DNA of 64,000 nucleotides from Escherichia coli (GTDB lineage: Bacteria; Pseudomonadota; Gammaproteobacteria; Enterobacterales; Enterobacteriaceae): the NCBI RefSeq assembly GCF_044324785.1, contig NZ_CP172127.1; one strand, given 5' to 3'. Positions 575 to 30,013 of this stretch are shown here, one piece after another. Numbering within the stretch: position 1 is the first letter of the stretch; every line of letters starts with the position of its first letter. Under the pieces are notes generated by a model. The model ran no database searches and was not told the DNA's origin. It saw only the letters and a program-made list of their open reading frames with translations. A program made the translations under genes and the position numbers.

Positions 575-1462
575 ATGTCATCATCCCGTCCGGTGTTCCG
601 CTCGCGCTGGCTGCCTTACCTGCTGGTCGCGCCGCAGCTCATCATCACCGTTATCTTTTTTATCTGGCCTGCGGGCGAAGCGTTGTGGTACTCGCTACAA
701 AGCGTCGATCCATTTGGTTTCTCCAGCCAGTTTGTCGGTCTGGATAACTTCGTCGCGCTGTTTCATGACAGCTACTATCTCGACTCCTTCTGGACGACGA
801 TAAAATTCAGCACCTTTGTCACCGTCAGCGGTTTGCTGGTATCGCTGTTCTTTGCGGCTCTGGTGGAGTACATCGTGCGCGGCAGCCGTTTCTATCAAAC
901 CTTGATGCTGCTGCCGTATGCCGTGGCTCCCGCCGTTGCCGCCGTATTATGGATCTTCCTGTTTAACCCCGGTCGCGGGTTGATCACCCATTTTCTCGCT
1001 GAGTTCGGCTACGACTGGAACCATGCGCAAAACAGCGGTCAGGCGATGTTCCTGGTGGTGTTTGCCTCGGTGTGGAAGCAAATTAGCTACAACTTCCTGT
1101 TCTTCTATGCCGCGCTGCAATCCATTCCCCGCTCGTTGATCGAAGCCGCAGCCATCGACGGTGCAGGCCCGATTCGCCGCTTCTTTAAGATTGCGCTGCC
1201 GCTTATCGCTCCGGTGAGTTTCTTCCTGCTGGTGGTGAACCTGGTATACGCCTTCTTCGACACCTTCCCGGTGATCGACGCCGCCACGTCCGGCGGGCCG
1301 GTTCAGGCCACCACGACGCTGATTTATAAGATTTACCGCGAAGGCTTTACCGGACTGGATCTGGCTTCGTCTGCCGCGCAGTCGGTGGTGTTGATGTTCC
1401 TCGTCATCGTGCTGACGGTGGTGCAGTTCCGCTATGTTGAAAGCAAGGTGCGTTACCAATGA
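575..1462 (+). CDS. ugpA: sn-glycerol-3-phosphate ABC transporter permease
   Basis: 295 aa polytopic membrane ORF; operon position; 4-nt overlap with next gene. Confidence 0.9.
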
Positions 1463-2304
1463 TTGAGAACCGTCCGTGGCTGACGATATTCAGCCATACC
1501 ATGCTGATCCTCGGGATCGCGGTGATCCTCTTCCCGCTGTACGTGGCGTTTGTCGCGGCGACGCTGGATAAACAAGCCGTCTACGCCGCGCCGATGACGC
1601 TAATCCCCGGCCCACATCTGCTGGAAAACATCCACAACATCTGGGTGAACGGGGTAGGCACGAATAGCGCGCCGTTCTGGCGGATGTTGCTTAACAGCTT
1701 CGTGATGGCGTTCAGCATTACGCTCGGCAAAATTACCGTCTCGATGCTTTCGGCATTTGCCATTGTCTGGTTTCGTTTTCCGCTGCGTAACCTCTTCTTC
1801 TGGATGATTTTTATCACCCTGATGCTGCCAGTTGAAGTACGTATCTTCCCGACGGTGGAAGTCATCGCCAACCTGAAAATGCTCGACAGCTACGCAGGCC
1901 TGACGCTGCCGCTGATGGCCTCGGCGACCGCTACCTTCCTGTTCCGCCAGTTCTTTATGACGCTGCCGGATGAACTGGTGGAAGCCGCGCGGATCGACGG
2001 CGCGTCACCAATGCGTTTCTTTTGCGACATCGTTTTTCCGCTCTCCAAAACTAATCTGGCGGCGCTGTTTGTGATCACCTTTATTTACGGCTGGAACCAG
2101 TATTTGTGGCCGTTGTTGATTATTACCGACGTTGATCTCGGCACCACCGTGGCAGGGATTAAAGGGATGATCGCCACTGGCGAAGGCACCACGGAATGGA
2201 ACTCAGTGATGGCGGCGATGTTGTTAACCCTGATCCCACCAGTAGTGATTGTTTTAGTGATGCAGCGTGCCTTTGTGCGCGGCCTGGTCGATAGTGAGAA
2301 ATAA
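1459..2304 (+). CDS. ugpE: sn-glycerol-3-phosphate ABC transporter permease
   Basis: 281 aa membrane ORF, ATGA overlap with ugpA. Confidence 0.9.
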
Positions 2305-2305
2305 G

Positions 2306-3376
2306 ATGGCAGGACTGAAATTACAGGCAGTAACCAAAAGCTGGGATGGCAAAACCCAGGTCATTAAACCGCTGACACTTGATGTGGCGGATGGCGAATT
2401 TATCGTGATGGTCGGGCCGTCTGGCTGCGGGAAATCGACGCTGCTGCGCATGGTTGCCGGGCTGGAGCGGGTGACGGAAGGCGATATCTGGATCAACGAC
2501 CAGCGGGTGACCGAAATGGAGCCGAAAGATCGCGGGATTGCGATGGTGTTCCAGAACTACGCTCTCTACCCACATATGAGCGTCGAAGAAAACATGGCGT
2601 GGGGGCTGAAAATTCGCGGCATGGGCAAGCAGCAAATTGCCGAACGTGTTAAAGAAGCGGCGCGCATTCTGGAGCTGGACGGCCTGCTTAAACGTCGCCC
2701 GCGCGAGCTATCTGGCGGTCAGCGTCAGCGTGTGGCGATGGGGCGTGCGATTGTGCGTGAGCCGGCAGTGTTCCTGTTTGATGAGCCGCTCTCTAACCTC
2801 GATGCCAAGCTGCGTGTGCAGATGCGCCTTGAACTGCAACAGCTGCACCGTCGCCTGAAAACGACTTCACTGTACGTTACTCACGATCAGGTTGAGGCGA
2901 TGACCCTCGCCCAGCGAGTGATGGTGATGAACGGCGGCGTTGCCGAACAGATTGGCACGCCAGTTGAAGTCTACGAAAAGCCCGCCAGCCTGTTTGTGGC
3001 GAGTTTTATTGGCAGTCCGGCGATGAACCTGCTGACAGGCCGCGTGAATAACGAAGGCACGCATTTCGAACTGGACGGCGGCATCGCGCTGCCGCTAAAC
3101 GGTGGCTACCGTCAGTATGCCGGGCGTAAAATGACCCTCGGCATTCGCCCGGAACATATAGCGCTAAGCTCGCAGGCAGAAGGTGGTGTGCCGCTGGTGA
3201 TGGACACGCTGGAGATCCTCGGTGCAGATAACCTGGCGCACGGACGCTGGGACGAACAGAAGCTGGTGGTGCGACTGGCGCATCAGGAGCGCCCGACGGC
3301 AGGCAGCACACTGTGGCTGCATCTGCCGGAAAATCAGCTGCATCTTTTTGATGGTGAAACAGGACAACGAGTATGA
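2306..3376 (+). CDS. ugpC: sn-glycerol-3-phosphate ABC transporter ATP-binding protein
   Basis: Walker [13 protein letters not shown] signature LSGGQRQR; start taken at MAGLK (ATG 2306) right after the ugpE stop, not the upstream in-frame ATG 2267. Confidence 0.9.
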
Positions 3377-4116
3377 GTAACTGGCCTTATCCCCGCATCG
3401 TCGCCCATCGTGGCGGCGGTAAACTGGCCCCGGAAAACACCCTGGCGGCAATCGACGTGGGGGCAAAATACGGTCATAAGATGATCGAATTTGACGCGAA
3501 GTTATCGAAAGATGGCGAGATCTTCCTGCTCCATGACGACAATCTCGAACGTACCAGCAACGGCTGGGGCGTCGCGGGTGAACTGAACTGGCAGGATTTA
3601 CTACGCGTGGATGCGGGCAGTTGGTACAGCAAAGCGTTTAAAGGTGAGCCGCTGCCGTTGCTTTCGCAGGTGGCGGAACGCTGTCGCGAACACGGGATGA
3701 TGGCGAATATCGAAATCAAACCCACCACTGGCACCGGGCCATTAACGGGCAAAACGGTGGCGCTGGCGGCACGCGAACTGTGGGCCGATATGACGCCGCC
3801 GCTGCTGTCATCGTTTGAGATTGATGCTTTAGAAGCTGCACAACAGGCGGCACCGGAACTGCCGCGCGGTTTATTGCTTGATGAGTGGCGCGACGACTGG
3901 CGAGAACTGACCGCGCGGCTGGGCTGCGTCTCTATTCATCTCAATCATAAGTTGCTCGATAAAGCGCGAGTGATGCAGTTGAAAGACGCCGGATTACGGA
4001 TTCTGGTTTATACCGTCAATAAACCCCAGCGCGCGGCAGAGTTGCTGCGCTGGGGCGTGGATTGCATCTGTACCGATGCGATTGACGTGATTGGTCCGAA
4101 CTTTACGGCCCAATAG
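3373..4116 (+). CDS. ugpQ: cytoplasmic glycerophosphodiester phosphodiesterase
   Basis: 247 aa, GP-PDE motif HRGG, overlaps ugpC stop. Confidence 0.9.
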
Positions 4117-4543
4117 TTTTCAACGGAATATCAGGCTGCGGCGTGCTGGGCTGATTCAGCATGTCGCCGTTTCTCCTCTCCGGCAGCATATGCTGCTGAT
4201 TCAACGAACTATCCGGATTACGGTTGCTGTTTAACATCCCGCCGTTGGTGTTGGGCAGCATTTGCTGCCGGGCGGGATTTCGCTCCCCCGGCTGTGACTG
4301 CAACACCCGCTGAGAATTATTGTTTATCTGGTTTTCTAAATGCTGTTGTTGCAACTGAGTTTGCGTTTTCAGTTGCTGATTCAGCATCCCTTTTTGCTGG
4401 ATTTGCTGCGTTTGCATTTGAGTCTGCATCCGCTGCTGGCTGGGGATCTGATATCCCGGCTGGTTGGGGTTGTTCAGAGTATTAATGGGCTGTGCAAAGC
4501 CGACAAACGGCAGGAGTGCCGTAAGAATCAGAAGTCGTTTCAT
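4103..4543 (-). CDS. yhhA: secreted Gln-rich protein of unknown function
   Basis: 146 aa, N-terminal signal peptide [19 protein letters not shown]-rich low-complexity body; convergent 14-nt overlap with ugpQ 3' end. Confidence 0.8.
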
Positions 4544-4662
4544 CGCGTATCCTCCTCTGAAGATATTCTTTAAGTTTACTCCTTTCCTGCAATCATCAGG
4601 ATTAATTCAGAGTTATATACCAGGCTTAGCTGGGGTTGCCCCTTAATCTCTGGAGAATAACG

Positions 4663-6408
4663 ATGATAAAACCGACGTTTTTACGCCGGGTGGCCATTGC
4701 TGCTCTGTTCACAGGAAGTTGTTTTAGTACGGTAGCCGCGCCACCTGCGCCGTCTCCTGTTTCTTACGGCGTGGAGGAAGATGTCTTTCATCCGGTACGC
4801 GCGAAACAGGGGATGGTGGCGTCTGTAGATGCTACTGCCACTCAGGTGGGGGTGGATATCCTCAAGGAGGGCGGGAATGCCGTTGATGCCGCCGTGGCGG
4901 TGGGCTACGCGCTGGCGGTAACGCATCCGCAGGCGGGGAATCTGGGCGGCGGTGGTTTTATGTTAATCCGCTCGAAAAATGGCAACACCACGGCGATTGA
5001 TTTCCGCGAAATGGCACCCGCCAAAGCGACCCGGGATATGTTCCTTGATGATCAGGGCAACCCGGACAGCAAAAAATCACTCACTTCGCATCTGGCCTCC
5101 GGCACGCCCGGTACGGTCGCTGGTTTCTCGCTGGCGTTGGATAAATACGGCACTATGCCGTTGAACAAAGTGGTGCAGCCAGCGTTTAAACTGGCACGCG
5201 ATGGTTTTATCGTTAACGACGCGCTGGCTGACGATCTCAAAACCTACGGGAGCGAAGTGCTGCCGAATCACGAAAATAGCAAAGCTATCTTCTGGAAAGA
5301 GGGCGAGCCGCTGAAAAAGGGCGACAAGCTGGTGCAGGCGAACCTGGCAAAGAGCCTGGAGATGATTGCCGAAAACGGCCCGGACGAATTCTACAAAGGC
5401 ACGATAGCGGAACAGATTGCCCAGGAGATGCAGAAAAACGGTGGCTTGATCACGAAAGAAGATTTAGCGGCGTATAAAGCGGTCGAACGTACACCGATTA
5501 GCGGCGATTATCGCGGGTATCAGGTTTACTCGATGCCACCGCCATCTTCCGGCGGGATCCATATCGTACAAATCCTCAATATTCTGGAAAACTTCGATAT
5601 GAAGAAATACGGCTTTGGCAGCGCCGACGCGATGCAAATCATGGCAGAAGCTGAGAAATACGCCTACGCCGACCGCTCGGAATATCTTGGCGACCCGGAT
5701 TTTGTCAAAGTCCCGTGGCAGGCGCTGACCAATAAAGCCTATGCCAAATCTATTGCCGATCAAATCGATATCAATAAAGCGAAGCCGTCCAGTGAGATTC
5801 GCCCTGGCAAGCTTGCGCCTTATGAGAGTAATCAAACTACCCATTACTCTGTAGTGGATAAAGACGGTAACGCGGTGGCGGTGACCTATACGCTGAATAC
5901 CACCTTCGGTACGGGCATTGTCGCGGGCGAGAGCGGTATTTTGCTCAATAACCAGATGGATGATTTCTCCGCCAAACCGGGCGTGCCGAACGTTTACGGG
6001 CTGGTGGGCGGTGATGCCAACGCCGTCGGGCCGAACAAACGTCCGCTGTCATCGATGTCACCAACCATTGTTGTGAAAGACGGTAAAACCTGGCTGGTGA
6101 CTGGTAGCCCTGGCGGTAGCCGGATTATCACCACCGTGCTGCAAATGGTAGTGAACAGCATCGATTATGGCATGAATGTCGCCGAAGCGACCAATGCACC
6201 GCGTTTCCACCATCAGTGGTTGCCGGACGAGCTGCGCGTCGAGAAAGGATTTAGCCCGGATACGCTCAAACTGCTGGAAGCAAAAGGTCAGAAAGTGGCG
6301 CTGAAAGAGGCGATGGGCAGCACACAAAGCATTATGGTTGGGCCGGACGGCGAGTTGTACGGCGCATCCGATCCGCGCTCGGTGGATGATTTAACGGCGG
6401 GGTATTAA
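4663..6408 (+). CDS. ggt: gamma-glutamyltranspeptidase
   Basis: 580 aa starting MIKPTFLRR, signal peptide, catalytic Thr region QTTHYSVVD; upstream in-frame ATG 4636 judged an ORF-track extension. Confidence 0.92.
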   Translation: MIKPTFLRRVAIAALFTGSCFSTVAAPPAPSPVSYGVEEDVFHPVRAKQGMVASVDATATQVGVDILKEGGNAVDAAVAVGYALAVTHPQAGNLGGGGFMLIRSKNGNTTAIDFREMAPAKATRDMFLDDQGNPDSKKSLTSHLASGTPGTVAGFSLALDKYGTMPLNKVVQPAFKLARDGFIVNDALADDLKTYGSEVLPNHENSKAIFWKEGEPLKKGDKLVQANLAKSLEMIAENGPDEFYKGTIAEQIAQEMQKNGGLITKEDLAAYKAVERTPISGDYRGYQVYSMPPPSSGGIHIVQILNILENFDMKKYGFGSADAMQIMAEAEKYAYADRSEYLGDPDFVKVPWQALTNKAYAKSIADQIDINKAKPSSEIRPGKLAPYESNQTTHYSVVDKDGNAVAVTYTLNTTFGTGIVAGESGILLNNQMDDFSAKPGVPNVYGLVGGDANAVGPNKRPLSSMSPTIVVKDGKTWLVTGSPGGSRIITTVLQMVVNSIDYGMNVAEATNAPRFHHQWLPDELRVEKGFSPDTLKLLEAKGQKVALKEAMGSTQSIMVGPDGELYGASDPRSVDDLTAGY

Positions 6409-6445
6409 GGTTAGCGGCTCTCTTCGTGGGAAGAGGGCCGTATTG

Positions 6446-6730
6446 TCAGGGCAAGCCGAAGGTAGCCTTTTTTATTTCATAATCCTGTAGATATTCTTCC
6501 AGCGGCTTTGCCGTTCCAAGGGAATGAATTTCACCACTGTCTTTATCAATAATAAAAGGTGCGTTACCGGCTAAACGCGCGGCCTCATCTCCAGATTCAA
6601 GAAATTCTTGTGATTCGAAACAGAAATACCAGCCCTGGCTAAAACGTCCATGCAGAGTGATGACGACAGGGAGATCTGCATCATCAAGGTAATGGTTCGC
6701 TTTCGCGAATGCGTCGTGATAAGTAATCAT
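6446..6730 (-). CDS. yrhB: small conserved protein (YrhB-like)
   Basis: 94 aa ORF at the position and size of K-12 yrhB. Confidence 0.7.
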   Translation of the reverse strand: MITYHDAFAKANHYLDDADLPVVITLHGRFSQGWYFCFESQEFLESGDEAARLAGNAPFIIDKDSGEIHSLGTAKPLEEYLQDYEIKKATFGLP

Positions 6731-7188
6731 AATTATAATAAATATTATTGTTGATCGTTATATTATTATTCTTGCGTTATACTTTGAGAAAAGACGCGTT
6801 CATCTTCGTCAAAGATATTATAAAATGCTGGTTTTGAAAAAAGTTCATCGGATAATATACAGTCACGAAATAAGTATCTGCTAATATTTTGTGATTTCTT
6901 TTTCAGAACGTCGAACGGGATTTTCTTATTTAAGATATCAGAATCTTATGATTCGGGTGAAATTCTAACTAAATCAACATGTCACTAAAATCATCATAGC
7001 CATTAGCTATTTCGGCTAAAATGGCTAAAATAGAGATTACATGTCTTCGGTCCATCTCACTTAAGGAGTGTAGTTCCGTTGTAAGTTTTTCCATAGCTTG
7101 CATTGCTAAGTTTCGAACAAGGAATTTTCTGCTGGTAATCTCTAAAAAGATGGCATGGTTTACAATGATTTTTGTTACCTTTTGATTA

Positions 7189-7683
7189 TTATGAACAACT
7201 GTCCATGATTTCGTTTAAGAATGAAGAGAAATCACTAAACGAACTGAATATATTTTCGGTGCCAATATTATCTCTAATTTCAAAAAAGTTACTTTTAATG
7301 TCATAAGTAAATATTGAAATGCTATCATCACCGATCACTAACCGTTCTTGTAGATCAGGGTTTATGAAATCATCATTATTTCTATAAAATTCATTTACGG
7401 CAAAAAGGTTTTTAACTGAAGGTTCTGGAATCGAGAGGCTAAATAATCGTAATCCATTAGCTTCGAATCCATCCATTGCTCTTAAAAAAGTAAGATAATC
7501 AGGTTGATTCTTAAAAAGAATACTAACTTCATTACATAACTTCTCCAGGCAATTAGTTGAATTAGAATTAAATTCTATTTGGATTATACTTTCAATAAAT
7601 GATTCCTTGAGCGGTGCTTCAAATGGATGGTCTAAATCATTCATCATTTTTTTTAATTTATTTATTTGGGTTTTAGTCATCAT
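7189..7683 (-). CDS. candidate immunity protein for the upstream Hcp-HNH effector (positional equivalent of yrhA)
   Basis: 164 aa acidic ORF, start ATGATGA-overlapped with yhhZ stop (translational coupling), AT-rich codon usage. Confidence 0.6.
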   Translation of the reverse strand: MMTKTQINKLKKMMNDLDHPFEAPLKESFIESIIQIEFNSNSTNCLEKLCNEVSILFKNQPDYLTFLRAMDGFEANGLRLFSLSIPEPSVKNLFAVNEFYRNNDDFINPDLQERLVIGDDSISIFTYDIKSNFFEIRDNIGTENIFSSFSDFSSFLNEIMDSCS

Positions 7684-8858
7684 TTTGTGGGTTCCATAAT
7701 ATTTTTCATGAGAGGATAAATTGAGCCAGATGGAATGGCCCAGGGAGTGATTTTGCTTTCACCTACTAATATTCCCTTAGCTATTCGTGATTGCATGTTA
7801 GTAAAAACTTTATGATATGGTTCGTTTTCGATTAATACTAAATTTTCGAAATCATTAGTACCACCATCATCTAGAGATAGTTTATGGTGAACATTATAAT
7901 TTAGAGGAACATTGCCCTTTCTCATTCTTAAAAGGTCTTCGGCGTTGAATCTTCCAGATGCTTCGGAGGTTTTTGCAAGTTTGATAAGAAAATTTTTTCT
8001 TACAGTTTTATTAAACTCCTTTCGTAAGTTAGCTAAGTCTTTTGAAGGTCTCTTAATGTATATTATTTCTATTATGTCTATACCATCAAGAAGTTTTTGT
8101 TGACCTCTAAGTTTGCCTAAGTAACTATTTATTTCTGTATATGTATCAACATTAGAACGCTTTGTTAAAAGAATAGATGCTGTTGCTATCGCTATGCCCG
8201 CTGTTTTTTCATTTAGTATTTGATCATAGCCTTTGATTGCATCTCCACCCAGTTTTTCCGCAGTATCTCTGAATCCTTCAATGTTCCCATTGTATACGCC
8301 ACCAGCAGCAAGTAGCCTGCCAACAGCTTCGCTGTTTAACGTTTTTAAACCATTATTTGTTTTGTTTTTTGAATTTGGTAAAAACAAGCGGTTATAATTT
8401 TCAGGGAGTGCCAAATAGCTGAACTCGGTGTTAGTGATAAGATGTTGGCAGAGGATAAATTCATAACTAACAGTTATTGTTTCTGTATCCAGCTGGTTTT
8501 CAATGATCTGGTGATGAATAGCCGATAAAAAAGCGCCTCTTAGTTGTATATAATAATACTTTTCCCATCTACCAAATCTATTTATTCGATAGAAGTCAAA
8601 TCCCATAAATAATTGTTCATTATTGTTAATGGAATTAATAAATAATGGAGTGCTTTTATCAATTAATTTACAAAATGTTATACCATGGAACTGTGAACCA
8701 AGCCCCGTATTAGAAATACTATTTAAGAGTGAGAATGTAAATATTTCATTCTCATGCCCGCTCTGCCAGCGATTACCTATAGATTCAGTAGTCCCACAAC
8801 CTGCGGAGATGCTTCCTTGTTGTTCTCCCGTTACTGTCAGATAAATAATATTACTCAT
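7680..8858 (-). CDS. yhhZ: Hcp-domain protein with C-terminal HNH nuclease extension (orphan T6SS Hcp-effector)
   Basis: 392 aa; N-terminal Hcp-like region; C-terminal NYNVHHKLSLDDGGTNDFENLVLIENEPYHKV HNH-type motif; very AT-rich. Confidence 0.8.
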   Translation of the reverse strand: MSNIIYLTVTGEQQGSISAGCGTTESIGNRWQSGHENEIFTFSLLNSISNTGLGSQFHGITFCKLIDKSTPLFINSINNNEQLFMGFDFYRINRFGRWEKYYYIQLRGAFLSAIHHQIIENQLDTETITVSYEFILCQHLITNTEFSYLALPENYNRLFLPNSKNKTNNGLKTLNSEAVGRLLAAGGVYNGNIEGFRDTAEKLGGDAIKGYDQILNEKTAGIAIATASILLTKRSNVDTYTEINSYLGKLRGQQKLLDGIDIIEIIYIKRPSKDLANLRKEFNKTVRKNFLIKLAKTSEASGRFNAEDLLRMRKGNVPLNYNVHHKLSLDDGGTNDFENLVLIENEPYHKVFTNMQSRIAKGILVGESKITPWAIPSGSIYPLMKNIMEPTK

Positions 8859-9061
8859 CCCTGAAAAGTCCTTTTATAGCATGCTATTTTATCAATGGCA
8901 CTATTATGCTTGTTAATTGTTATTTATTTACTCCAGGAAATTGTAGGCGTATATATTAAAAAATAAAATATTACACTTTAGGAAGTAATTATGAGGTAAA
9001 TCTCATATATTTATTGGGAAAATAAATACATTAAAGGAAGGTATGCCGATTTTGAATGACA

Positions 9062-9088
9062 CCCTTTTTCCATCTCAGAAAAAGGGCA
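9062..9088. terminator. bidirectional hairpin terminator between yhhZ promoter region and yhhY 3' end
   Basis: ccctttttc-loop-gaaaaaggg stem with flanking T/A runs. Confidence 0.5.
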
Positions 9089-9093
9089 CTATC

Positions 9094-9582
9094 TTACTTC
9101 ACCCGCGCCATATAATACGCATCGACATATTCACCATTACGTAATGCGTACTTTTTGCCAGTCCCTTCAATCTCAAAGCCGAATTTTTTATAGACCTTAA
9201 TTGCTGGCGCGTTATCGACGAACACCGTTAGTTCAATACGATCTACCCGCAACCAGTTATCGCACATTTCAATCATCTCTCGCATCAGGGCACTGGCGAC
9301 ACCGCGATTCTTCCAGCGGGCGTCGACACAGATACCAAAATCGGCAACATGACTGCGGCGCGGGCGTTGTTGCACGTCAATGGTGAGATGGCCTACGACG
9401 ATTCCATCAATACAGGCGACTAACTGCTTGATGCCGGGACGATCGGCGAGTCGCTCCTGCCACATATGATCGGAAGGATGAGGCACCTGTAGTGTGTTGC
9501 AATACACCTCCGGCTGGGCGTGAATCTGCCTGATGGCCTCGTAATCCCGTGTTTCTGCGTGGCGTATTACTATCTCACTCAT
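9094..9582 (-). CDS. yhhY: GNAT family N-acetyltransferase
   Basis: 162 aa from MSEIVIRHAETRDYEAIRQIH; acetyl-CoA binding RGVASALM motif; the longer ORF to 9660 would overlap the ryhB promoter. Confidence 0.85.
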   Translation of the reverse strand: MSEIVIRHAETRDYEAIRQIHAQPEVYCNTLQVPHPSDHMWQERLADRPGIKQLVACIDGIVVGHLTIDVQQRPRRSHVADFGICVDARWKNRGVASALMREMIEMCDNWLRVDRIELTVFVDNAPAIKVYKKFGFEIEGTGKKYALRNGEYVDAYYMARVK

Positions 9583-9680
9583 TCCTTTGTCCTCTTTGGG
9601 GTAAATGTCCCTTTCAACATCATTGACTTTCACATACGAGTCAAATGCATTTTTTTGCAAAAAGTGTTGGACAAGTGCGA

Positions 9681-9701
9681 ATGAGAATGATTATTATTGT
9701 C
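9681..9701 (+). promoter_or_regulatory. Fur box at ryhB promoter
   Basis: atgagaatgattattattgtc resembles GATAATGATAATCATTATC consensus immediately upstream of ryhB. Confidence 0.7.
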
Positions 9702-9703
9702 TC

Positions 9704-9797
9704 GCGATCAGGAAGACCCTCGCGGAGAACCTGAAAGCACGACATTGCTCACATTGCTTCCAGTATTACTTAGCCAGCCGGGTGCTGGCTTTTTTTT
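9704..9797 (+). ncRNA. ryhB: RyhB iron-responsive small RNA
   Basis: gcgatcaggaagaccctcgcggagaacctgaaagcacgacattgctcacattgcttccagtattacttagccagccgggtgctggcttttttttt matches RyhB as I recall it, with terminator hairpin plus T-run. Confidence 0.92.
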
Positions 9798-9914
9798 TGA
9801 TCTTTCGTTCTCAATTTATCCACGGGAGTGCTTGTGTTCGTTATGCGCACTCCAGTAGGAACCACGTCCGCTTTGCGCTAAGGTGTAAATAACCACCTTA
9901 AAAAGGACGAAATC

Positions 9915-10952
9915 ATGGTCATCAACTGCGCCTTTATTGGCTTCGGCAAAAGCACCACCCGTTACCATCTGCCGTATGTACTTAACCGCAAGGATAGCTG
10001 GCATGTCGCGCATATTTTTCGCCGCCATGCGAAGCCGGAAGAACAGGCCCCCATTTACTCTCATATCCATTTCACCAGCGATCTCGACGAAGTACTAAAC
10101 GATCCCGATGTTAAGCTGGTTGTGGTCTGCACCCATGCGGACAGCCATTTCGAGTACGCGAAACGCGCGCTGGAAGCCGGGAAAAATGTGCTGGTCGAAA
10201 AACCGTTCACTCCGACGCTTGCGCAGGCGAAAGAGCTGTTTGCTCTGGCGAAAAGTAAAGGGCTGACCGTCACGCCATATCAGAATCGTCGCTTTGATTC
10301 CTGCTTCCTGACAGCGAAAAAAGCGATTGAAAGCGGCAAGCTGGGAGAGATTGTCGAAGTGGAAAGCCATTTTGACTATTACCGCCCGGTGGCAGAAACC
10401 AAACCTGGACTGCCGCAGGATGGCGCGTTTTATGGCCTTGGTGTGCATACGATGGACCAGATTATTTCTCTGTTCGGTCGCCCGGATCACGTCGCTTATG
10501 ACATCCGCAGCCTGCGTAATAAAGCCAATCCTGACGACACCTTTGAAGCGCAGCTGTTTTATGGCGACCTGAAAGCCATCGTCAAAACCAGCCATCTGGT
10601 GAAAATCGATTATCCGAAATTTATCGTTCACGGTAAGAAAGGTTCGTTTATTAAATACGGTATCGACCAGCAGGAAACCAGCCTCAAGGCTAATATTATG
10701 CCGGGCGAACCGGGATTCGCGGCGGATGATTCGGTCGGTGTGCTGGAGTATGTCAATGACGAGGGCGTGACGGTCAGAGAAGAGATAAAGCCGGAGATGG
10801 GCGATTACGGGCGCGTTTATGATGCGTTGTATCAAACCATCACTAACGGTGCGCCAAATTACGTCAAGGAATCTGAAGTTCTTACCAATCTGGAAATCCT
10901 TGAACGAGGATTTGAGCAAGCCTCTCCCTCCACAGTGACTCTCGCGAAGTAA
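9915..10952 (+). CDS. yhhX: Gfo/Idh/MocA family NAD(P)-dependent oxidoreductase
   Basis: 345 aa, N-terminal Rossmann GFGKS, recognisable family. Confidence 0.85.
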   Translation: MVINCAFIGFGKSTTRYHLPYVLNRKDSWHVAHIFRRHAKPEEQAPIYSHIHFTSDLDEVLNDPDVKLVVVCTHADSHFEYAKRALEAGKNVLVEKPFTPTLAQAKELFALAKSKGLTVTPYQNRRFDSCFLTAKKAIESGKLGEIVEVESHFDYYRPVAETKPGLPQDGAFYGLGVHTMDQIISLFGRPDHVAYDIRSLRNKANPDDTFEAQLFYGDLKAIVKTSHLVKIDYPKFIVHGKKGSFIKYGIDQQETSLKANIMPGEPGFAADDSVGVLEYVNDEGVTVREEIKPEMGDYGRVYDALYQTITNGAPNYVKESEVLTNLEILERGFEQASPSTVTLAK

Positions 10953-11074
10953 GTTTGATGGCCCCTCGAATAGTTCAATTTTTTTGAACAGAGGGGTCAA
11001 TTTTCACCCTCTATCATCCCAGGCAGATCGGGTCCACACTAAGCCCATCGAAATCATTCAGGGGGCGAATACAA

Positions 11075-11770
11075 ATGATCTACTTACGCAAAGCAAATGA
11101 ACGTGGTCATGCAAATCATGGCTGGCTGGACTCCTGGCATACTTTCTCTTTTGCCAACTATTACGATCCGAACTTTATGGGCTTCTCCGCGCTGCGCGTG
11201 ATTAACGACGACGTGATTGAAGCAGGGCAGGGCTTCGGCACTCACCCGCATAAAGATATGGAAATTTTGACCTACGTGCTGGAAGGTACTGTTGAGCATC
11301 AGGACAGCATGGGCAATAAAGAGCAGGTTCCGGCGGGTGAGTTCCAGATTATGAGTGCGGGTACGGGTATTCGTCACTCAGAGTACAACCCAAGCAGCAC
11401 CGAGCGTCTGCATCTGTATCAAATCTGGATCATGCCGGAAGAAAACGGTATTACGCCGCGTTATGAACAGCGTCGCTTCGATGCCGTACAGGGCAAACAG
11501 CTGGTGCTCTCGCCGGATGCGCGAGATGGTTCGCTGAAAGTGCACCAGGATATGGAACTGTATCGTTGGGCATTGCTGAAAGATGAGCAGTCGGTGCATC
11601 AGATTGCCGCTGAACGCCGCGTCTGGATCCAGGTGGTGAAAGGCAATGTCACCATTAACGGCGTGAAAGCCTCGACCAGCGATGGTCTGGCAATCTGGGA
11701 TGAGCAGGCAATCTCCATTCATGCGGATAGCGACAGCGAAGTGTTACTGTTCGATCTGCCGCCGGTTTAA
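11075..11770 (+). CDS. yhhW: pirin-like cupin (quercetin 2,3-dioxygenase)
   Basis: 231 aa, cupin metal ligands HPHKDME, HSEYN. Confidence 0.85.
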   Translation: MIYLRKANERGHANHGWLDSWHTFSFANYYDPNFMGFSALRVINDDVIEAGQGFGTHPHKDMEILTYVLEGTVEHQDSMGNKEQVPAGEFQIMSAGTGIRHSEYNPSSTERLHLYQIWIMPEENGITPRYEQRRFDAVQGKQLVLSPDARDGSLKVHQDMELYRWALLKDEQSVHQIAAERRVWIQVVKGNVTINGVKASTSDGLAIWDEQAISIHADSDSEVLLFDLPPV

Positions 11771-11787
11771 AACTCAACGGCATCTTT

Positions 11788-11811
11788 GAAGCCTGCCTTT
11801 TTGCAGGCTTC
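11788..11811 (+). terminator. hairpin downstream of yhhW (putative terminator)
   Basis: gaagcctgc-cttttt-gcaggcttc perfect 9-bp stem; no clear T-run after. Confidence 0.4.
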
Positions 11812-11993
11812 CTCGCTCGCTCCGGTCGCGTGCTGATGTACGCTTCCGGGGTTTTGCCGCGTCGTTAGCACAATGCGATGCAATTGATTTAGTGTATATC
11901 TAATAATTGTAAACAAGCACTGTTTTCCCCGGGAAGGTTCTGAGGCGTCCGTGTTAAACTAAGAGAATCTATCTCTTTTGTACCTTCAGGACG

Positions 11994-12989
11994 ATGAAAA
12001 AGAAAAGACCCGTACTTCAGGATGTGGCTGACCGTGTAGGCGTGACCAAAATGACGGTCAGCCGCTTTTTGCGTAACCCGGAGCAGGTTTCCGTCGCTCT
12101 ACGCGGCAAGATTGCCGCCGCTCTTGATGAACTGGGTTATATTCCCAATCGCGCGCCCGATATCCTCTCTAACGCCACCAGCCGGGCGATTGGCGTCCTG
12201 TTACCTTCTCTCACCAACCAGGTTTTCGCGGAAGTATTACGCGGAATCGAAAGCGTCACCGACGCGCACGGTTATCAGACCATGCTGGCCCACTACGGTT
12301 ATAAACCGGAAATGGAGCAAGAACGCCTCGAATCAATGCTCTCATGGAATATCGACGGACTGATCCTCACCGAACGTACCCACACGCCGCGCACCTTAAA
12401 GATGATTGAAGTGGCGGGGATTCCGGTGGTGGAACTGATGGACAGCAAGTCGCCGTGCCTCGATATTGCCGTCGGTTTTGATAACTTTGAAGCGGCACGC
12501 CAGATGACCACCGCCATTATTGCTCGCGGGCATCGCCACATTGCCTATCTCGGCGCACGTCTCGACGAACGTACTATCATCAAACAGAAGGGATACGAAC
12601 AGGCGATGCTGGATGCAGGCCTGGTGCCATATAGCGTGATGGTTGAGCAATCTTCTTCTTACTCTTCCGGTATTGAACTGATTCGCCAGGCGCGGCGGGA
12701 ATATCCGCAGCTGGATGGCGTGTTCTGTACTAATGATGACCTGGCGGTCGGCGCGGCGTTTGAATGCCAGCGTCTGGGGTTGAAAGTTCCTGACGATATG
12801 GCGATTGCCGGTTTCCATGGTCATGACATTGGTCAGGTGATGGAACCACGGTTGGCGAGCGTACTGACGCCGCGTGAGCGGATGGGCAGTATTGGCGCTG
12901 AACGCCTGCTGGCGCGTATTCGTGGCGAATCTGTGACACCGAAAATGTTAGATTTAGGTTTCACCTTGTCACCGGGCGGATCTATTTAA
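11994..12989 (+). CDS. gntR: LacI-family gluconate repressor
   Basis: 331 aa, N-terminal HTH VTKMTVSRFL, periplasmic-binding-fold body. Confidence 0.9.
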   Translation: MKKKRPVLQDVADRVGVTKMTVSRFLRNPEQVSVALRGKIAAALDELGYIPNRAPDILSNATSRAIGVLLPSLTNQVFAEVLRGIESVTDAHGYQTMLAHYGYKPEMEQERLESMLSWNIDGLILTERTHTPRTLKMIEVAGIPVVELMDSKSPCLDIAVGFDNFEAARQMTTAIIARGHRHIAYLGARLDERTIIKQKGYEQAMLDAGLVPYSVMVEQSSSYSSGIELIRQARREYPQLDGVFCTNDDLAVGAAFECQRLGLKVPDDMAIAGFHGHDIGQVMEPRLASVLTPRERMGSIGAERLLARIRGESVTPKMLDLGFTLSPGGSI

Positions 12990-13052
12990 GCCCACAAATT
13001 TGAAGTAGCTCACACTTATACACTTAAGGCACGGATGGATATTGCTTCTGAT

Positions 13053-13070
13053 ATTGTCCGGCCGGACAAT
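13053..13070. promoter_or_regulatory. perfect 18-bp palindrome ATTGTCCGGCCGGACAAT upstream of gntK
   Basis: read directly; abuts the GntR operator. Confidence 0.5.
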
Positions 13071-13098
13071 GTTACCGATAACAGTTACCCGTAACATT
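13069..13098 (+). promoter_or_regulatory. GntR operator(s) in gntKU promoter
   Basis: atgttaccgataacagttacccgtaacat; ATGTTACCCGTAACAT-type palindromic half-sites. Confidence 0.65.
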
Positions 13099-13128
13099 TT
13101 TTATTTCTTGTATTGTGGGGGCACCACT

Positions 13129-13656
13129 TTGAGCACGACTAACCATGATCACCACATTTACGTCTTGATGGGCGTATCGGGCAGCGGCAAATCTGCGGTC
13201 GCCAGTGAAGTGGCGCACCAACTTCATGCCGCGTTTCTTGATGGCGATTTCCTCCATCCACGGCGCAATATCGAAAAAATGGCCTCTGGTGAACCGCTGA
13301 ATGACGACGATCGTAAACCGTGGTTGCAGGCGCTGAACGACGCCGCGTTTGCCATGCAGCGTACCAATAAAGTGTCGCTGATCGTCTGTTCTGCACTGAA
13401 AAAACACTATCGCGACCTGCTGCGTGAAGGTAATCCGAATCTTTCTTTCATCTACCTGAAAGGCGATTTTGATGTGATTGAAAGCCGCCTGAAAGCGCGC
13501 AAAGGCCATTTCTTTAAAACCCAAATGTTGGTGACGCAGTTTGAAACGCTGCAGGAGCCGGGTGCGGACGAAACCGATGTACTGGTGGTGGATATCGATC
13601 AACCGCTGGAAGGTGTTGTGGCAAGCACCATTGAGGTTATTAAAAAAGGCAAATAA
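13129..13656 (+). CDS. gntK: thermoresistant gluconokinase
   Basis: 175 aa from (M)STTNHDHHIYVLMGVSGSGKS; P-loop; the codon at the expected start is TTG; the ORF-track ATG 13042 would run through the operator. Confidence 0.8.
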   Translation: MSTTNHDHHIYVLMGVSGSGKSAVASEVAHQLHAAFLDGDFLHPRRNIEKMASGEPLNDDDRKPWLQALNDAAFAMQRTNKVSLIVCSALKKHYRDLLREGNPNLSFIYLKGDFDVIESRLKARKGHFFKTQMLVTQFETLQEPGADETDVLVVDIDQPLEGVVASTIEVIKKGK

Positions 13657-13659
13657 GTA

Positions 13660-15000
13660 GTGACTACATTAACGCTTGTTTTAACAGCAGTAGGGTCTGT
13701 TTTACTGCTGCTGTTTTTAGTCATGAAGGCGCGTATGCACGCTTTCCTGGCTTTGATGGTGGTGTCCATGGGGGCTGGCCTTTTTTCCGGTATGCCGCTC
13801 GATAAAATCGCAGCGACGATGGAAAAAGGGATGGGAGGCACCCTCGGCTTTCTGGCGGTGGTTGTCGCCCTGGGAGCCATGTTTGGCAAGATCTTACATG
13901 AAACCGGCGCAGTCGATCAGATTGCCGTCAAAATGCTCAAATCCTTCGGTCACAGCCGCGCGCATTATGCCATCGGCCTTGCGGGGCTGGTCTGTGCGCT
14001 GCCGTTGTTCTTTGAAGTGGCGATTGTTCTGCTGATTAGCGTTGCTTTCTCAATGGCGCGCCACACCGGTACGAACCTGGTGAAGCTGGTAATCCCATTA
14101 TTCGCAGGCGTGGCGGCAGCGGCTGCGTTCCTGGTGCCGGGGCCTGCGCCAATGCTGCTGGCATCGCAGATGAACGCCGACTTTGGCTGGATGATCCTGA
14201 TTGGCCTGTGTGCGGCAATTCCGGGAATGATTATTGCCGGGCCGCTGTGGGGTAATTTCATCAGCCGCTACGTGGAGTTGCATATTCCTGACGACATCAG
14301 CGAACCACATCTCGGTGAAGGCAAAATGCCGTCCTTCGGATTCAGCCTGTCGCTGATCCTGTTGCCACTGGTGCTGGTGGGGCTGAAAACCATTGCCGCG
14401 CGCTTTGTGCCGGAAGGCTCTACCGCTTACGAATGGTTCGAGTTTATTGGTCATCCGTTTACCGCGATTCTGGTTGCTTGTCTGGTAGCAATTTATGGCC
14501 TGGCAATGCGTCAGGGTATGCCAAAAGACAAAGTGATGGAAATTTGTGGTCACGCGCTGCAACCGGCGGGGATCATTCTGCTGGTGATTGGTGCAGGCGG
14601 CGTGTTCAAACAGGTGCTGGTTGACTCTGGCGTAGGTCCGGCACTGGGCGAAGCGTTAACCGGCATGGGCCTGCCGATTGCCATCACCTGCTTCGTGCTG
14701 GCAGCTGCAGTGCGCATCATTCAGGGTTCTGCCACCGTTGCCTGTTTAACGGCGGTGGGACTGGTGATGCCGGTTATTGAACAACTGAACTATTCCGGAG
14801 CGCAAATGGCGGCGCTGTCGATTTGTATCGCCGGTGGTTCGATTGTTGTCAGCCACGTTAACGACGCCGGTTTCTGGTTGTTCGGTAAATTTACCGGCGC
14901 GACTGAAGCCGAAACACTGAAAACCTGGACCATGATGGAAACCATCCTCGGCACTGTCGGTGCTATCGTTGGGATGATTGCGTTCCAACTGTTGAGTTAA
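13660..15000 (+). CDS. gntU: low-affinity gluconate:H+ symporter
   Basis: 446 aa GntP-family permease; GTG start 3 bp after gntK stop. Confidence 0.88.
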   Translation: MTTLTLVLTAVGSVLLLLFLVMKARMHAFLALMVVSMGAGLFSGMPLDKIAATMEKGMGGTLGFLAVVVALGAMFGKILHETGAVDQIAVKMLKSFGHSRAHYAIGLAGLVCALPLFFEVAIVLLISVAFSMARHTGTNLVKLVIPLFAGVAAAAAFLVPGPAPMLLASQMNADFGWMILIGLCAAIPGMIIAGPLWGNFISRYVELHIPDDISEPHLGEGKMPSFGFSLSLILLPLVLVGLKTIAARFVPEGSTAYEWFEFIGHPFTAILVACLVAIYGLAMRQGMPKDKVMEICGHALQPAGIILLVIGAGGVFKQVLVDSGVGPALGEALTGMGLPIAITCFVLAAAVRIIQGSATVACLTAVGLVMPVIEQLNYSGAQMAALSICIAGGSIVVSHVNDAGFWLFGKFTGATEAETLKTWTMMETILGTVGAIVGMIAFQLLS

Positions 15001-15012
15001 TTACTGCGACAA

Positions 15013-15038
15013 ATTACTGCGAGCTTGCTCGCAGTAAT
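15013..15038 (+). terminator. gntU terminator hairpin
   Basis: attactgcgagc-tt-gctcgcagtaat palindrome followed by T-rich tract; preceded by a direct copy ttactgcga. Confidence 0.6.
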
Positions 15039-15139
15039 TCATTTCTCTTTTCTCCTGTCTTCATCTTTTTGATCTCTCTCGCAAATTTACCTGCTAATAA
15101 TCCGTTCTAATCACTGCCTAAAGATCGCAGGAGATAAAG

Positions 15140-17236
15140 ATGGAAAAGCACGGAGCTGAATTGCTTTTACAGCGGATGTTAGGAAATACCACCGCTACTT
15201 TCAGGGAAGGGCAATGGGAAGCCATAGATGCAGTGGTTAATCAGCGGCGAAAACTGCTGGTTGTACAGCGCACCGGCTGGGGGAAAAGTGCCGTGTACTT
15301 CATCGCCAGTAAAATCTTCCGAGATCGCGGCGCTGGCCCGACAATTATCATCTCTCCTTTGCTTGCCCTGATGCGTAACCAGGTTGCCGCCGCTGAACGG
15401 TTAGGTATTACGGCTGAAACGTTGAATTCTACAAACAGGGAAGAATGGCAGCGCATTAGCGATAAGTTGCTGCAAGGTGAGGTCGATTGCTTGCTGGTTT
15501 CCCCGGAACGATTGGCAAACCAGGACTTTATCGAAACGGTTTTATATCCTATAGCCGATCGTATTGGCTTGCTTGTGGTCGACGAGGCGCACTGCATCTC
15601 TGATTGGGGCCACGATTTTCGCCCGGATTACCGACGTATATTAGATATTTTGCGCCAACTGCCTGCGAATACCCCTGTTCTGGGTACAACCGCGACAGCG
15701 AATAACCGTGTTGTTGAGGATATCCGTCAGCAATTGGGTGACATTGTGATTCAGCGTGGAACGCTGGCTCGCGAAAGTTTGGCGCTTGATGCCTTAGTCT
15801 TAGGAGAACAGTCATCCCGTCTGGCATGGTTAGCAACGGTTATCCCTCAGTTTTCCAAATCGGGAATTGTTTATACCCTGACGACTCGCGATGCTGAACT
15901 TGTCGCCGAGTGGTTAAGGAAAAATGGTATCAGTGCATTTGCTTACTACAGCGGCGTGACTTGTGAAGGCGCGGAAGATTCTAATACTGCCAGGGAATAT
16001 CTGGAGCAGGCACTGCTGGCAAATAAAATCAAAGTGCTGGTCGCGACGACGGCATTAGGTATGGGGTTTGATAAACCTGATTTAGGTTTCGTCATTCATT
16101 ATCAGATGCCGGGGTCTATTGTCGGTTACTACCAACAGGTGGGGCGTGCCGGTCGTGCTATAGATTCCGCAGTTGGCATATTGCTTTGTGGTGGTGAAGA
16201 CCGCGCTATTCATCAATTCTTCCGTGAAAGCGCCTTTCCTGCGGAGGCGCAAATTCATGAAATACTCAACGTACTTAGCGAGAATGACGGTCTTACCCTA
16301 CGAGGCATTGAACAACGGACGAATCTTCGTTATGGGCAAATAGAAAAAGCACTGAAATTATTGGTAGCGGAAAATCCATCGCCTGTGGTGTATACCGAGA
16401 AATTATGGCGCAGAACTATCGTCAGTTTTTCTCCTGATCATGAACGAATTAACCATTTGATGAATCAGAGAAAAAGTGAGCTGGCAGACGTTGAAAGCTA
16501 TATCACGACCAAGGAGTGCAAAATGCAATTTCTGCGCCGTGCACTCGATGAGCCAAGTGCCGAACGTTGTGGTAAATGTAGCAGTTGTCTTCAGCATCCG
16601 TTATTGTCGCCCGACATTGATAGCGGCTTACTCCATGCGGCAAATTTATTTATTAAACACGCTGACCTGCCGTTAAATCTCAATAAACAGGTGGCAGCTG
16701 GGGCTTTTACGCAATACGGATTTAAAGGGAACTTGCCTGCGGGTTTACAAGGATCTACGGGGCGAATCCTTTCTCGTTGGGGAGATTCCGGGTGGGGAAA
16801 GCAGGTAGCACAGGAGAAAAAAACGGGGCGCTTCAGTGATGAGCTGGTAGAAGCATGTGCGGAAATGGTTCGCCAACGCTGGAATCCGCATCCTGAACCA
16901 ACCTGGGTATGCTGCGTTCCTTCATTAAGGCACCTCGACCTGGTTCCTGATTTTGCCCGGCGACTGGCGGCGAAACTTGGCTTACCTTTTATTGATGCCA
17001 TTGAAAAAGTCGTGGACAATCCACCGCAGAAAATGCAGCAAAACCGTTTTCACCAGTGTCAAAATCTCGACGGGGCGTTTGTGATTACCCCTCCTTTGAT
17101 GCCAGGTCCGGCGTTGCTGGTTGACGATATCGTGGATTCTGCATGGACGCTGACAGTTCTGACAGCACTGTTACGCCAGGCAGGTTGCCCGACGGTTTAT
17201 CCTCTTGCCCTTGCTTCTACCTCGGTAAAAAATTGA
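15140..17236 (+). CDS. RecQ-family DNA helicase fused to a C-terminal ComF-like phosphoribosyltransferase (PRTase) domain
   Basis: 698 aa; FREGQ motif 0, Walker A TGWGKS, DEAHCISDWGHDFRPDY, ATTALGMGFDKPD, QQVGRAGR, Cys cluster CK..CGKCSSC; C-terminal ...NLDGAFVIT...ALLVDDIVDSAWT aligns with ComF/GntX PRTase fold; good SD aggag upstream. Confidence 0.85.
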   Translation: MEKHGAELLLQRMLGNTTATFREGQWEAIDAVVNQRRKLLVVQRTGWGKSAVYFIASKIFRDRGAGPTIIISPLLALMRNQVAAAERLGITAETLNSTNREEWQRISDKLLQGEVDCLLVSPERLANQDFIETVLYPIADRIGLLVVDEAHCISDWGHDFRPDYRRILDILRQLPANTPVLGTTATANNRVVEDIRQQLGDIVIQRGTLARESLALDALVLGEQSSRLAWLATVIPQFSKSGIVYTLTTRDAELVAEWLRKNGISAFAYYSGVTCEGAEDSNTAREYLEQALLANKIKVLVATTALGMGFDKPDLGFVIHYQMPGSIVGYYQQVGRAGRAIDSAVGILLCGGEDRAIHQFFRESAFPAEAQIHEILNVLSENDGLTLRGIEQRTNLRYGQIEKALKLLVAENPSPVVYTEKLWRRTIVSFSPDHERINHLMNQRKSELADVESYITTKECKMQFLRRALDEPSAERCGKCSSCLQHPLLSPDIDSGLLHAANLFIKHADLPLNLNKQVAAGAFTQYGFKGNLPAGLQGSTGRILSRWGDSGWGKQVAQEKKTGRFSDELVEACAEMVRQRWNPHPEPTWVCCVPSLRHLDLVPDFARRLAAKLGLPFIDAIEKVVDNPPQKMQQNRFHQCQNLDGAFVITPPLMPGPALLVDDIVDSAWTLTVLTALLRQAGCPTVYPLALASTSVKN

Positions 17237-18438: not shown

Positions 18439-18440
18439 TA

Positions 18441-18478
18441 AAACAGGTGCCGCGTCTGGTTGTGTGCAGCACCTGTTT
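18441..18478 (-). terminator. yhgN terminator hairpin
   Basis: aaacaggtgc ... gcacctgttt 10-bp inverted repeat, T-run on minus strand. Confidence 0.55.
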
Positions 18479-18483
18479 GAACC

Positions 18484-19077
18484 TTACCCCTTCATCCACA
18501 TTCGAATCCCGTCGAGGAACATCTGGGTTGCCATCATCACCAGAATCAATCCCATCAGGCGTTCAAGTGCATTCACCCCTTTCTCGCCGAGCAGACGTAA
18601 AAATAGCGAAGACTGTAGCAGGATGACAAAGGTGCCACCCCAGGCCAGCAGCAGAGCAATTACCAGATGTCCCATCTGATTCGGGTACTGATGAGACAAC
18701 AACATCAGCGTGGCGAGAATAGTCGGCCCGGCGACTAACGGAATTGCCAACGGCACGATAAACGGCTCTTCACCTGCCGGAAGCCCGCTGCTATTTCCTG
18801 AAGCACTGGGGAAAATCATCTTAATGGCGATCAGAAACAGAATGATGCCGCCAGAAATGGAGACGGTTTCTGCCCGCAGGCTAAGAAATGCCAGAATTTT
18901 CTCACCCGCAAACAGGAACACCAGCATCACCAGGAGAGCAATAAGCAACTCTCGCACCATGATTGCCCGCCGTCTTTTCGGTTCAGTATGTTTCAGTACG
19001 GACATGAAAATAGGTAGGTTTCCGAGCGGATCCATAATCAGGATCAATAAAACTGCTGCAGAAATGATTTCATTCAT
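18484..19077 (-). CDS. yhgN: MarC-family inner membrane protein
   Basis: 197 aa polytopic ORF, conserved position beside asd. Confidence 0.85.
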   Translation of the reverse strand: MNEIISAAVLLILIMDPLGNLPIFMSVLKHTEPKRRRAIMVRELLIALLVMLVFLFAGEKILAFLSLRAETVSISGGIILFLIAIKMIFPSASGNSSGLPAGEEPFIVPLAIPLVAGPTILATLMLLSHQYPNQMGHLVIALLLAWGGTFVILLQSSLFLRLLGEKGVNALERLMGLILVMMATQMFLDGIRMWMKG

Positions 19078-24801: not shown

Positions 24802-24818
24802 TAAAAAAGGAGTTAGTC

Positions 24819-27547: not shown

Positions 27548-30013
<2,466 letters not shown>

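Follow-up and report, generated by a model that had tools for sequence, protein, structure and literature searches.

Escherichia coli may carry, between the chromosomal genes yhhY and ggt, a short AT-rich block that contains yhhZ, encoding an Hcp protein with a predicted C-terminal nuclease, yrhA, the gene of its predicted immunity protein, and the small reading frame yrhD, degraded in the DNA studied here; next to this block lies yrhB. This yhhZ-yrhA-yrhD-yrhB islet, as found in one stretch of 64,000 nucleotides (contig NZ_CP172127.1; the whole stretch is called the window throughout), is very probably an effector-immunity module of a type VI secretion system (T6SS). The gene order of the window is ugp-ggt-[yrhB yrhD yrhA yhhZ]-yhhY-yhhX-yhhW-gnt-...-pckA, the list of open reading frames (ORFs) places all the islet genes on the minus strand, and the genome of N3 (CP031609) is a colinear relative of the whole 64-kb window with 99.1-99.2% identity.

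Composition and boundaries of the islet

The original prediction, which was made from the letters of the window alone, described a 2.4-kb region whose GC content drops relative to its neighbors. This drop is readily recovered, as the GC fraction is 0.30-0.38 in 300-bp intervals from ~6600 to ~9150, against 0.51-0.56 on either side, and amounts to 32.3% over the segment 6747-9095 compared with 51.7% for the whole window. Its coordinates agree with the limits of an insertion/deletion: GZM7, a genome that has only yhhY-yrhB-ggt at this site, aligns to the window until 6746 and resumes at 9096, and because the alignment breaks at these two points the AT-rich block is regarded as a genuine insertion/deletion unit. 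In genomes with an empty site, ggt and yhhY are separated by ~60 bp. Considering that the block is also variably present (70% of genomes; all population counts are over 5426 complete E. coli genomes), it has both the composition and the distribution of a xenogeneic island.

The islet lies between two protein-coding genes, and the ORF list of the window has no integrase-like ORF and no tRNA gene there; a search for repeats at the borders returned short repeats at chance level only and no flanking direct repeats. A recent integrative element or mobile island was ruled out by the missing integrase, tRNA target, and border repeats. Together with the finding that yhhY-ggt is also occupied in Citrobacter freundii, this suggests that the islet has long been resident and was not inserted recently. 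The AT-rich DNA of the islet is old and its place in the chromosome is fixed; its features are collected in Table 1.

Table 1. Coordinates of the islet features in the window
Feature	Position	Strand	Basis
AT-rich insertion/deletion module (yrhD remnant, yrhA, yhhZ, intergenic DNA)	6747-9095	.	composition and GZM7 alignment
yhhZ, 392-aa specialized Hcp (Hcp-ET1 type) effector, predicted	7680-8858	-	ORF, TIGR03344, Pfam, PDB Hcp3
Hcp (TssD) tube-protein domain, residues 1-147	8418-8858	-	TIGR03344, Pfam, PDB
Putative portable toxin module, residues 172-383: helical lead, then nuclease domain	7710-8345	-	homologues, AlphaFold 2 (AF2)
Predicted HNH (beta-beta-alpha-metal) catalytic core, residues 322-351: NVHHKLSLDDGGTNDFENLVLIENEPYHKV	7806-7895	-	
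yrhA, intact 164-aa SUKH-fold predicted immunity gene (ETI1 equivalent)	7189-7683	-	
yrhD-like 44-aa ORF, decayed compared with K-12	6969-7103	-	ORF list and comparison with K-12
yrhB, 94-aa Imm35-family protein, 44.6% GC	6446-6730	-	Pfam Imm35
AT-rich yhhZ upstream region, presumed promoter/H-NS-bound, up to the yhhY stop and terminator hairpin	8859-9093	-	sequence

The surroundings of the islet were compared with two other strains. The identity to 55989 is 96.7% over 575-15000 (ugp-ggt-islet-gnt) and 98.8% over 18484-27565 (yhgN-glg), and, against K-12, the ggt side of the islet is 95.3% identical and the yhhY side 97.7%. The neighborhood of the islet diverges more than the nearby core genes, and it is possibly a recombination tract.

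YhhZ, an Hcp protein with a predicted nuclease

The first 147 residues of YhhZ score 118.6 bits against TIGR03344 (cutoff 58.9; 2.5e-34) over profile positions 1-161 of 167, which exceeds the curated cutoff across the entire Hcp domain and places the protein in the Hcp/TssD family. The same domain matches Pfam T6SS_HCP (PF05638) at 1.7e-10 and Hcp3 of P. aeruginosa (PDB 3he1) at 4e-11.

The C-terminus gives weak matches to Pfam Col-Pyo_DNase (E=1.9) and to Cas8f-HNH in the PDB (E ~0.07). Alignment of 29 homologues, with 49-96% identity, revealed an invariant VHH..DD.G.N...N(L)....H pattern, whose invariant HNH positions in YhhZ are H324, H325, D330, D331, N335, N339, and H349. An AF2 model of residues 150-392 has a predicted local distance difference test score (pLDDT) of 85-97 over residues ~249-384 and displays a beta-beta-alpha core; its fold matches that of HNH toxins, the nearest being T6SS and colicin nuclease toxins. 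The conserved catalytic pattern, set on a modeled beta-beta-alpha fold, points to the HNH/His-Me finger class, and a survey of His-Me finger proteins assigned YhhZ to a group of its own, group 32, as a predicted nuclease. The original prediction had proposed an Hcp fold with a C-terminal HNH extension, and the family scores, the motif shared by the homologues, and the modeled fold all agree with it. As judged from its sequence, YhhZ is a specialized Hcp carrying a toxin module of ~210 residues that ends in a predicted HNH (His-Me finger) nuclease.

Among the known HNH toxins, comparison was made with the DNase domains of colicins E7/E9 and with Serratia Rhs2-CT, a T6SS toxin. YhhZ differs from them in its carrier, which is an Hcp and not an Rhs/PAAR protein or a colicin translocation domain, and in its predicted immunity protein, which would have a SUKH fold in place of the helical structure of the Im7/Im9-type proteins of colicins.

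YrhA, the predicted immunity protein

The junction ACAAAATGATGACTAAA shows a 4-base overlap (ATGA) between the TGA stop of yhhZ and the first ATG of yrhA, followed by another ATG; the ATGA overlap sits within AAATGATGACT. The continuous 164-aa ORF overlapping the yhhZ stop, as originally described, is therefore present. YrhA belongs to the YrhA family of NCBIfam, NF038335, with 126.1 bits (cutoff 55; 1e-36) over residues 4-163. No match was found in Pfam, and sequence searches of the PDB with YrhA, with the YrhA profile, and with YrhB returned noise only. SUKH families of Pfam were detected in two of 21 YrhA homologues, one at 4.6e-4 (SUKH_6) and the other at 0.03 (SMI1_KNR4).

The best model of YrhA, built from these 21 homologues, reached a pLDDT of 82.8 and a predicted template modeling score (pTM) of 0.82, and was the only confident one of five. 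It displays the alpha+beta fold of SUKH proteins, and the assignment of YrhA to this fold, which the model suggests, would be mildly new. The SUKH (SMI1/KNR4) immunity proteins used for comparison were YobK of B. subtilis and RhsPI, the SMI1/KNR4-family partner of the RhsP-WHH toxin; YrhA differs from these proteins in that its sequence similarity to them is marginal, and NCBI keeps a separate YrhA family. Zhang, Iyer and Aravind reportedly recognized in 2011 that polymorphic toxins with nuclease activity have SUKH proteins as their classic immunity partners. YrhA is predicted to be the cognate immunity protein of YhhZ, and the idea that the downstream ORF is an immunity candidate gains from the ATGA coupling, the NF038335 membership, the SUKH-fold model, and the occurrence of a homologue after the toxin in Citrobacter, Enterobacter, and Pantoea.

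The toxin-immunity pair in other genera

The adjacency of toxin and YrhA is kept in four genera. In Citrobacter freundii, an Hcp-HNH protein is encoded at the yhhY-ggt site, with a toxin 71% identical to that of YhhZ and a YrhA-like protein of 164 aa (66%). In Enterobacter roggenkampii, a DUF8093 N-terminus replaces Hcp, the toxin is 67% identical over residues 172-383, and the YrhA-like protein has 166 aa (62%). Pantoea has a third type of N-terminus, encoded on a plasmid-like contig, a toxin with 49% identity, and a YrhA-like protein of 168 aa (31%). The toxin and the immunity protein diverge in step, and their pairing is independent of the N-terminal domain. These comparisons show that the toxin-immunity cassette is portable, occurring with three N-terminal domains unrelated to one another (Hcp, DUF8093, and an unnamed one), which is also mildly new, and the fusions with DUF8093 or with the third N-terminus, found in Enterobacter, Leclercia, and Pantoea, could be markers of delivery routes, so far undescribed, for a single nuclease toxin. 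The possibility that DUF8093 is a divergent Hcp was ruled out, as the hhalign probability is 0.2% and the domain has no relatives in the PDB.

The contexts of these pairs vary. In Enterobacter roggenkampii CP056148 (L011:5001-6663; also L009, L010, and L012), the DUF8093-toxin and YrhA genes form an AT-rich (35% GC) islet of two genes in a context of 55-61% GC. The pair of Pantoea sp. JAWJCB010000013 (L017:4001-5581), whose N-terminus has no Pfam match, is not AT-rich, with 50% GC; its contig gives a faint Rep3_N match and has three Hha-family genes near the pair. Citrobacter freundii CP101040 (L015:2309-8357) has an expanded islet with the genes of a 294-aa secreted-looking protein, Hcp-HNH, the YrhA homologue, an 85-aa ORF, an Imm35 gene, and an 83-aa ORF. 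Because this expanded islet occupies the yhhY-ggt site, the site has been occupied since before Citrobacter or independently in it.

yrhB and yrhD

The Imm35 family comprises immunity proteins of polymorphic-toxin systems. YrhB is a full-length member, since its residues 5-83 match positions 1-85 of the 85 of Pfam Imm35 (PF15567) with an independent E-value (i-E) of 1.4e-22. The yrhB gene is present in 4068 of the 5426 genomes, is commoner than yhhZ-yrhA, and persists alone in some genomes; in Citrobacter freundii, an Imm35 gene whose product is 70% identical to YrhB follows the toxin-immunity pair at yhhY-ggt. YrhB is a candidate for an additional or orphan immunity protein, and its Imm35 identity as a putative member of the islet is mildly new.

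The scan of NCBIfam gave no match for YrhB and none for YrhD. Compared with the 51-aa yrhD of K-12 and 55989, that of the window has an in-frame 9-bp duplication, by which ILA is repeated, and a TAT-to-TAG change by which the final 13 codons are lost; the N3 annotation gives a 41-aa hypothetical protein at this position. This suggests that yrhD is a decaying gene or not a real one. The original account of the islet was correct for yhhZ and the 164-aa ORF and missed both yrhB, with its Imm35 domain, and the decayed yrhD; similarly, the flanks of the pair do have low GC, as it stated, and one of them, 6731-7188, is not empty, because it holds the yrhD remnant.

Relationship with Hcp-ET1/ETI1 and other systems

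Hcp-ET1 (Ma et al. 2017, as presented in reviews and in a 2024 preprint) comes from STEC004, O104:H4 C227-11, and 55989. According to these secondary reports, it is an orphan Hcp whose C-terminal part has HNH and colicin E7/E9 DNase-like domains, it degrades the DNA of target cells, its delivery is by T6SS2 and not T6SS1, and it is neutralized by the downstream ETI1. In the source strain 55989, yhhZ-yrhA-yrhD-yrhB likewise lies between yhhY and ggt, and its proteins are nearly those of the window, with 374/392 identical residues in YhhZ (95.4%) and 160/164 in YrhA (97.6%). The 18 substitutions in YhhZ are allelic: 14 are located in the Hcp domain and linker (residues 1-179), one in the nuclease region, and three in the C-terminal tail. 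Moreover, the Pfam scan of YhhZ from the window returned HNH and Col-Pyo_DNase as a weak pair, as reported for Hcp-ET1.

The secondary sources and the 55989 locus argue strongly that YhhZ is the published Hcp-ET1. Carriage of yhhZ-yrhAB has been noted for the O104:H4 outbreak strain, and the literature search found no paper naming both yhhZ and Hcp-ET1; the present analysis ties the K-12 names yhhZ/yrhA to Hcp-ET1/ETI1. One paper presents yhhZ-yrhAB as a cluster for methionine-to-cysteine conversion, which was rejected as a confusion with the unrelated yrhA/yrhB of B. subtilis. Usp (Hcp-ET3-4) of uropathogenic E. coli resembles YhhZ in being an Hcp-nuclease fusion with immunity genes downstream, and differs from it by its pyocin S3 and colicin DNase domains, its three Imu immunity genes, and its different locus.

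Distribution in E. coli and the IS1 of K-12

The yhhZ-yrhA pair occurs in 3812/5426 genomes (~70%; 3767 at ≥80% coverage), always on the chromosome and normally in single copy, and the alternative states of the site are yhhY-yrhB-ggt and the empty ggt-yhhY. The K-12 locus resembles that of the window in its site, genes, and gene order, with 375/392 identical residues in YhhZ, including all of residues 180-382, and 91/94 in YrhB. It differs at two points, namely yrhD, which in the window has the 9-bp duplication and the premature stop, and yrhA, which in the window encodes the intact 164 aa, as in most E. coli, and in K-12 is interrupted by IS1.

The original prediction mentioned this interruption and reported the window as free of IS1, and alignment with K-12 confirmed both. 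The K-12 arrangement is yhhZ-yrhA::IS1E-yrhD-yrhB, in which the insertion truncates YrhA after ~codon 131; in the YrhA model, the SUKH fold thereby loses two of its strands and its terminal helix. What did not hold is the idea that the IS1-free state is noteworthy. Since the islet is found in 3812 genomes and the K-12-type yrhA::IS1 junction in 355, the examples listed being K-12-type laboratory strains, an IS1-free yrhA is the ordinary wild-type state. The intact yrhA is the ancestral and common form, the IS1 of K-12 is a lineage-specific lesion, and the view that an intact yrhA is unusual is corrected accordingly.

Delivery machinery and expression

As originally stated, the window has no T6SS structural genes, none being present in the N3 annotation across the colinear span. 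The word orphan used for this effector holds for the window; it does not hold for N3, the closest complete genome, whose chromosome has a T6SS cluster at tRNA-Asp (aspV), at 4730343-4753785 (L014), ~1.4 Mb from yhhZ. This cluster contains tssB, C, E, F, G, J, K, L (icmH), H, and M, together with tagH, vasI, two hcp genes, vgrG, and an Rhs gene. Its type of tssC is found in 2263/5426 genomes, O157:H7 strains included.

The proposal that the AT-rich flanks of the pair look like xenogeneic DNA, likely silenced by H-NS, stands as far as the AT-rich composition is concerned, and for H-NS it is consistent with binding at yhhZ and yrhA reported for K-12. A study of this strain described "promoter islands" inside yhhZ and yrhA, of a kind associated with predicted foreign genes, that are bound by H-NS in chromatin immunoprecipitation-microarray (ChIP-chip) data sets. 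By analogy, the islet is probably silent under laboratory conditions, and the silence of the locus would account for the tolerance by K-12 of an intact yhhZ beside a truncated yrhA. A K-12 paper reports the promoters yhhZp5 and yhhZp7 and no terminator across yhhZ-yrhA-IS1; our consensus promoter and terminator scans of the region gave no enrichment over shuffles. Finally, one engineered clone of MG1655 topA (topoisomerase I) spontaneously gained a yhhZ-yrhA deletion, which its authors left unexplained (bioRxiv 10.1101/2024.10.07.617030). This could be an adjacent deletion mediated by IS1, or could reflect selection against a derepressed toxin with a broken immunity gene.

Interpretation and alternatives

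The reading of the yhhZ-yrhA-yrhD-yrhB islet as a chromosomal T6SS effector-immunity module is given a probability of about 85%. By way of its Hcp domain, YhhZ would become part of the T6SS tube, by which the nuclease would be injected into neighboring bacteria; YrhA would bind this nuclease and block it in the producing cell and its relatives, YrhB would act as additional or orphan immunity, and H-NS would keep the islet mostly silent. By analogy, the allele of the window may be expected to behave like Hcp-ET1, with DNase activity, neutralization by its partner, and dependence on T6SS2.

Several points weigh against this reading. The match of YhhZ to Pfam HNH (PF01844) is sub-threshold (i-E=0.013) and covers 22 residues (322-343), and Blondel et al. 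2009 described YhhZ as an "evolved Hcp" whose HNH domain is "degenerate" and which has no link to a T6SS. The "degenerate" label is disfavored because the motif is conserved and because of the later functional reports of Hcp-ET1, and the equation of YhhZ with Hcp-ET1 was drawn through secondary reports and the 55989 locus. A T6SS in the source genome would be expected solely from the 99%-identical relative N3, where tssA and a gene with a VasL domain are flagged as frameshifted, in an assembly that has many such flags. Because at least 1549 of the 3812 islet carriers (41%) have no tssC of the N3/O157 type, and because K-12 has no T6SS at all, T6SS delivery is not the role of YhhZ everywhere. 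Lastly, given the H-NS binding in K-12, the module may rarely be expressed.

Some of these points would be explained by a defensive or relic module, in which the toxin is silent or undeliverable and yrhA, with yrhB, guards against T6SS-proficient E. coli armed with YhhZ. This explanation is possible, clearly secondary to an active effector-immunity module, and partly compatible with it. It would fit the large share of carriers devoid of the T6SS2-type tssC, the retention of the islet in the T6SS-less K-12, the H-NS binding reported there, the decay of yrhD in the window, and the fact that yrhB is commoner than the pair and stands alone in some genomes. However, yhhZ is intact both in the window and in K-12, and the identity of their nuclease regions (residues 180-382) argues for purifying selection on the toxin. 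Furthermore, the relative N3 has a T6SS, and K-12 retains the toxin with its immunity gene damaged, the reverse of the pattern expected if the islet were kept for immunity only.

It is unlikely that YhhZ works independently of any T6SS, as the toxin of an intracellular toxin-antitoxin or abortive-infection pair or by a bacteriocin-like release, with Hcp as a scaffold. The proposal of Blondel et al. 2009 that YhhZ has no connection with T6SS function points in this direction, as do the many carriers without the T6SS2 type and the occurrence of the cassette with non-Hcp N-termini (DUF8093, and the third type on a plasmid-like contig) in orphan islets of two genes. Nevertheless, the score of the Hcp domain is double the curated TssD cutoff, the secondary reports ascribe to Hcp-ET1 an antibacterial activity that depends on T6SS2, and immunity proteins of the SUKH type typically accompany secreted polymorphic toxins. 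In addition, no defense model of PADLOC matches YhhZ, YrhA, or YrhB, for which reason the islet is not filed as a known anti-phage system.

Least probable is a dead HNH domain, with no toxin, no need for immunity, and yrhA as a mere neighbor, because the weak Pfam match, the "degenerate" label of 2009, and the survival of K-12 with a truncated yrhA, which H-NS silencing explains equally well, are outweighed by catalytic-type residues that are invariant across genera, a model that folds like the HNH of T6SS and colicin nuclease toxins, a strictly conserved toxin-YrhA pairing, and the DNase activity ascribed to Hcp-ET1 in the secondary reports.

Other features of the window

Between gntU and yhgN, at 15140-18438 on the plus strand, a 698-aa RecQ-like helicase gene is followed by the overlapping gene of a 431-aa DprA-like protein; the pair matches PsyrT (E=0, 1068 bits) and PsyrA (8e-201) in PADLOC, and is on this ground a PsyrTA toxin-antitoxin anti-phage defense system. 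The corresponding insertion (~15000-18484) is present in N3 and absent from 55989. The glgP-glpD interval has, at ~30140-33135 (plus strand) and per the N3 annotation, genes for a PstS-family phosphate-binding protein (502 aa) and for hypothetical proteins of 258 and 201 aa, and the envZ-pckA interval has, at ~62130-62805 (minus strand) and by N3 colinearity, a RelE/ParE-family toxin gene and a NadS-family gene.

Significance

The islet is already known and widespread, is found here in its usual intact form, is annotated in K-12, and its pair has been characterized according to published accounts, so that it has little weight as a discovery. The value of the analysis is in the link between the names, in the predicted SUKH fold of YrhA, in the Imm35 identity of YrhB, and in the portability of the toxin-immunity cassette. 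A more far-reaching idea, which is unlikely, is that in the carriers without the T6SS2 type (at least 41%, K-12 included) the silenced pair persists as a latent self-toxic module independent of any T6SS, and that undescribed delivery routes serve the DUF8093 and third-N-terminus fusions. If this were true, derepression of yhhZ-yrhA would be harmful when the immunity gene is damaged, a situation with which the deletion in the topA clone may be compared.

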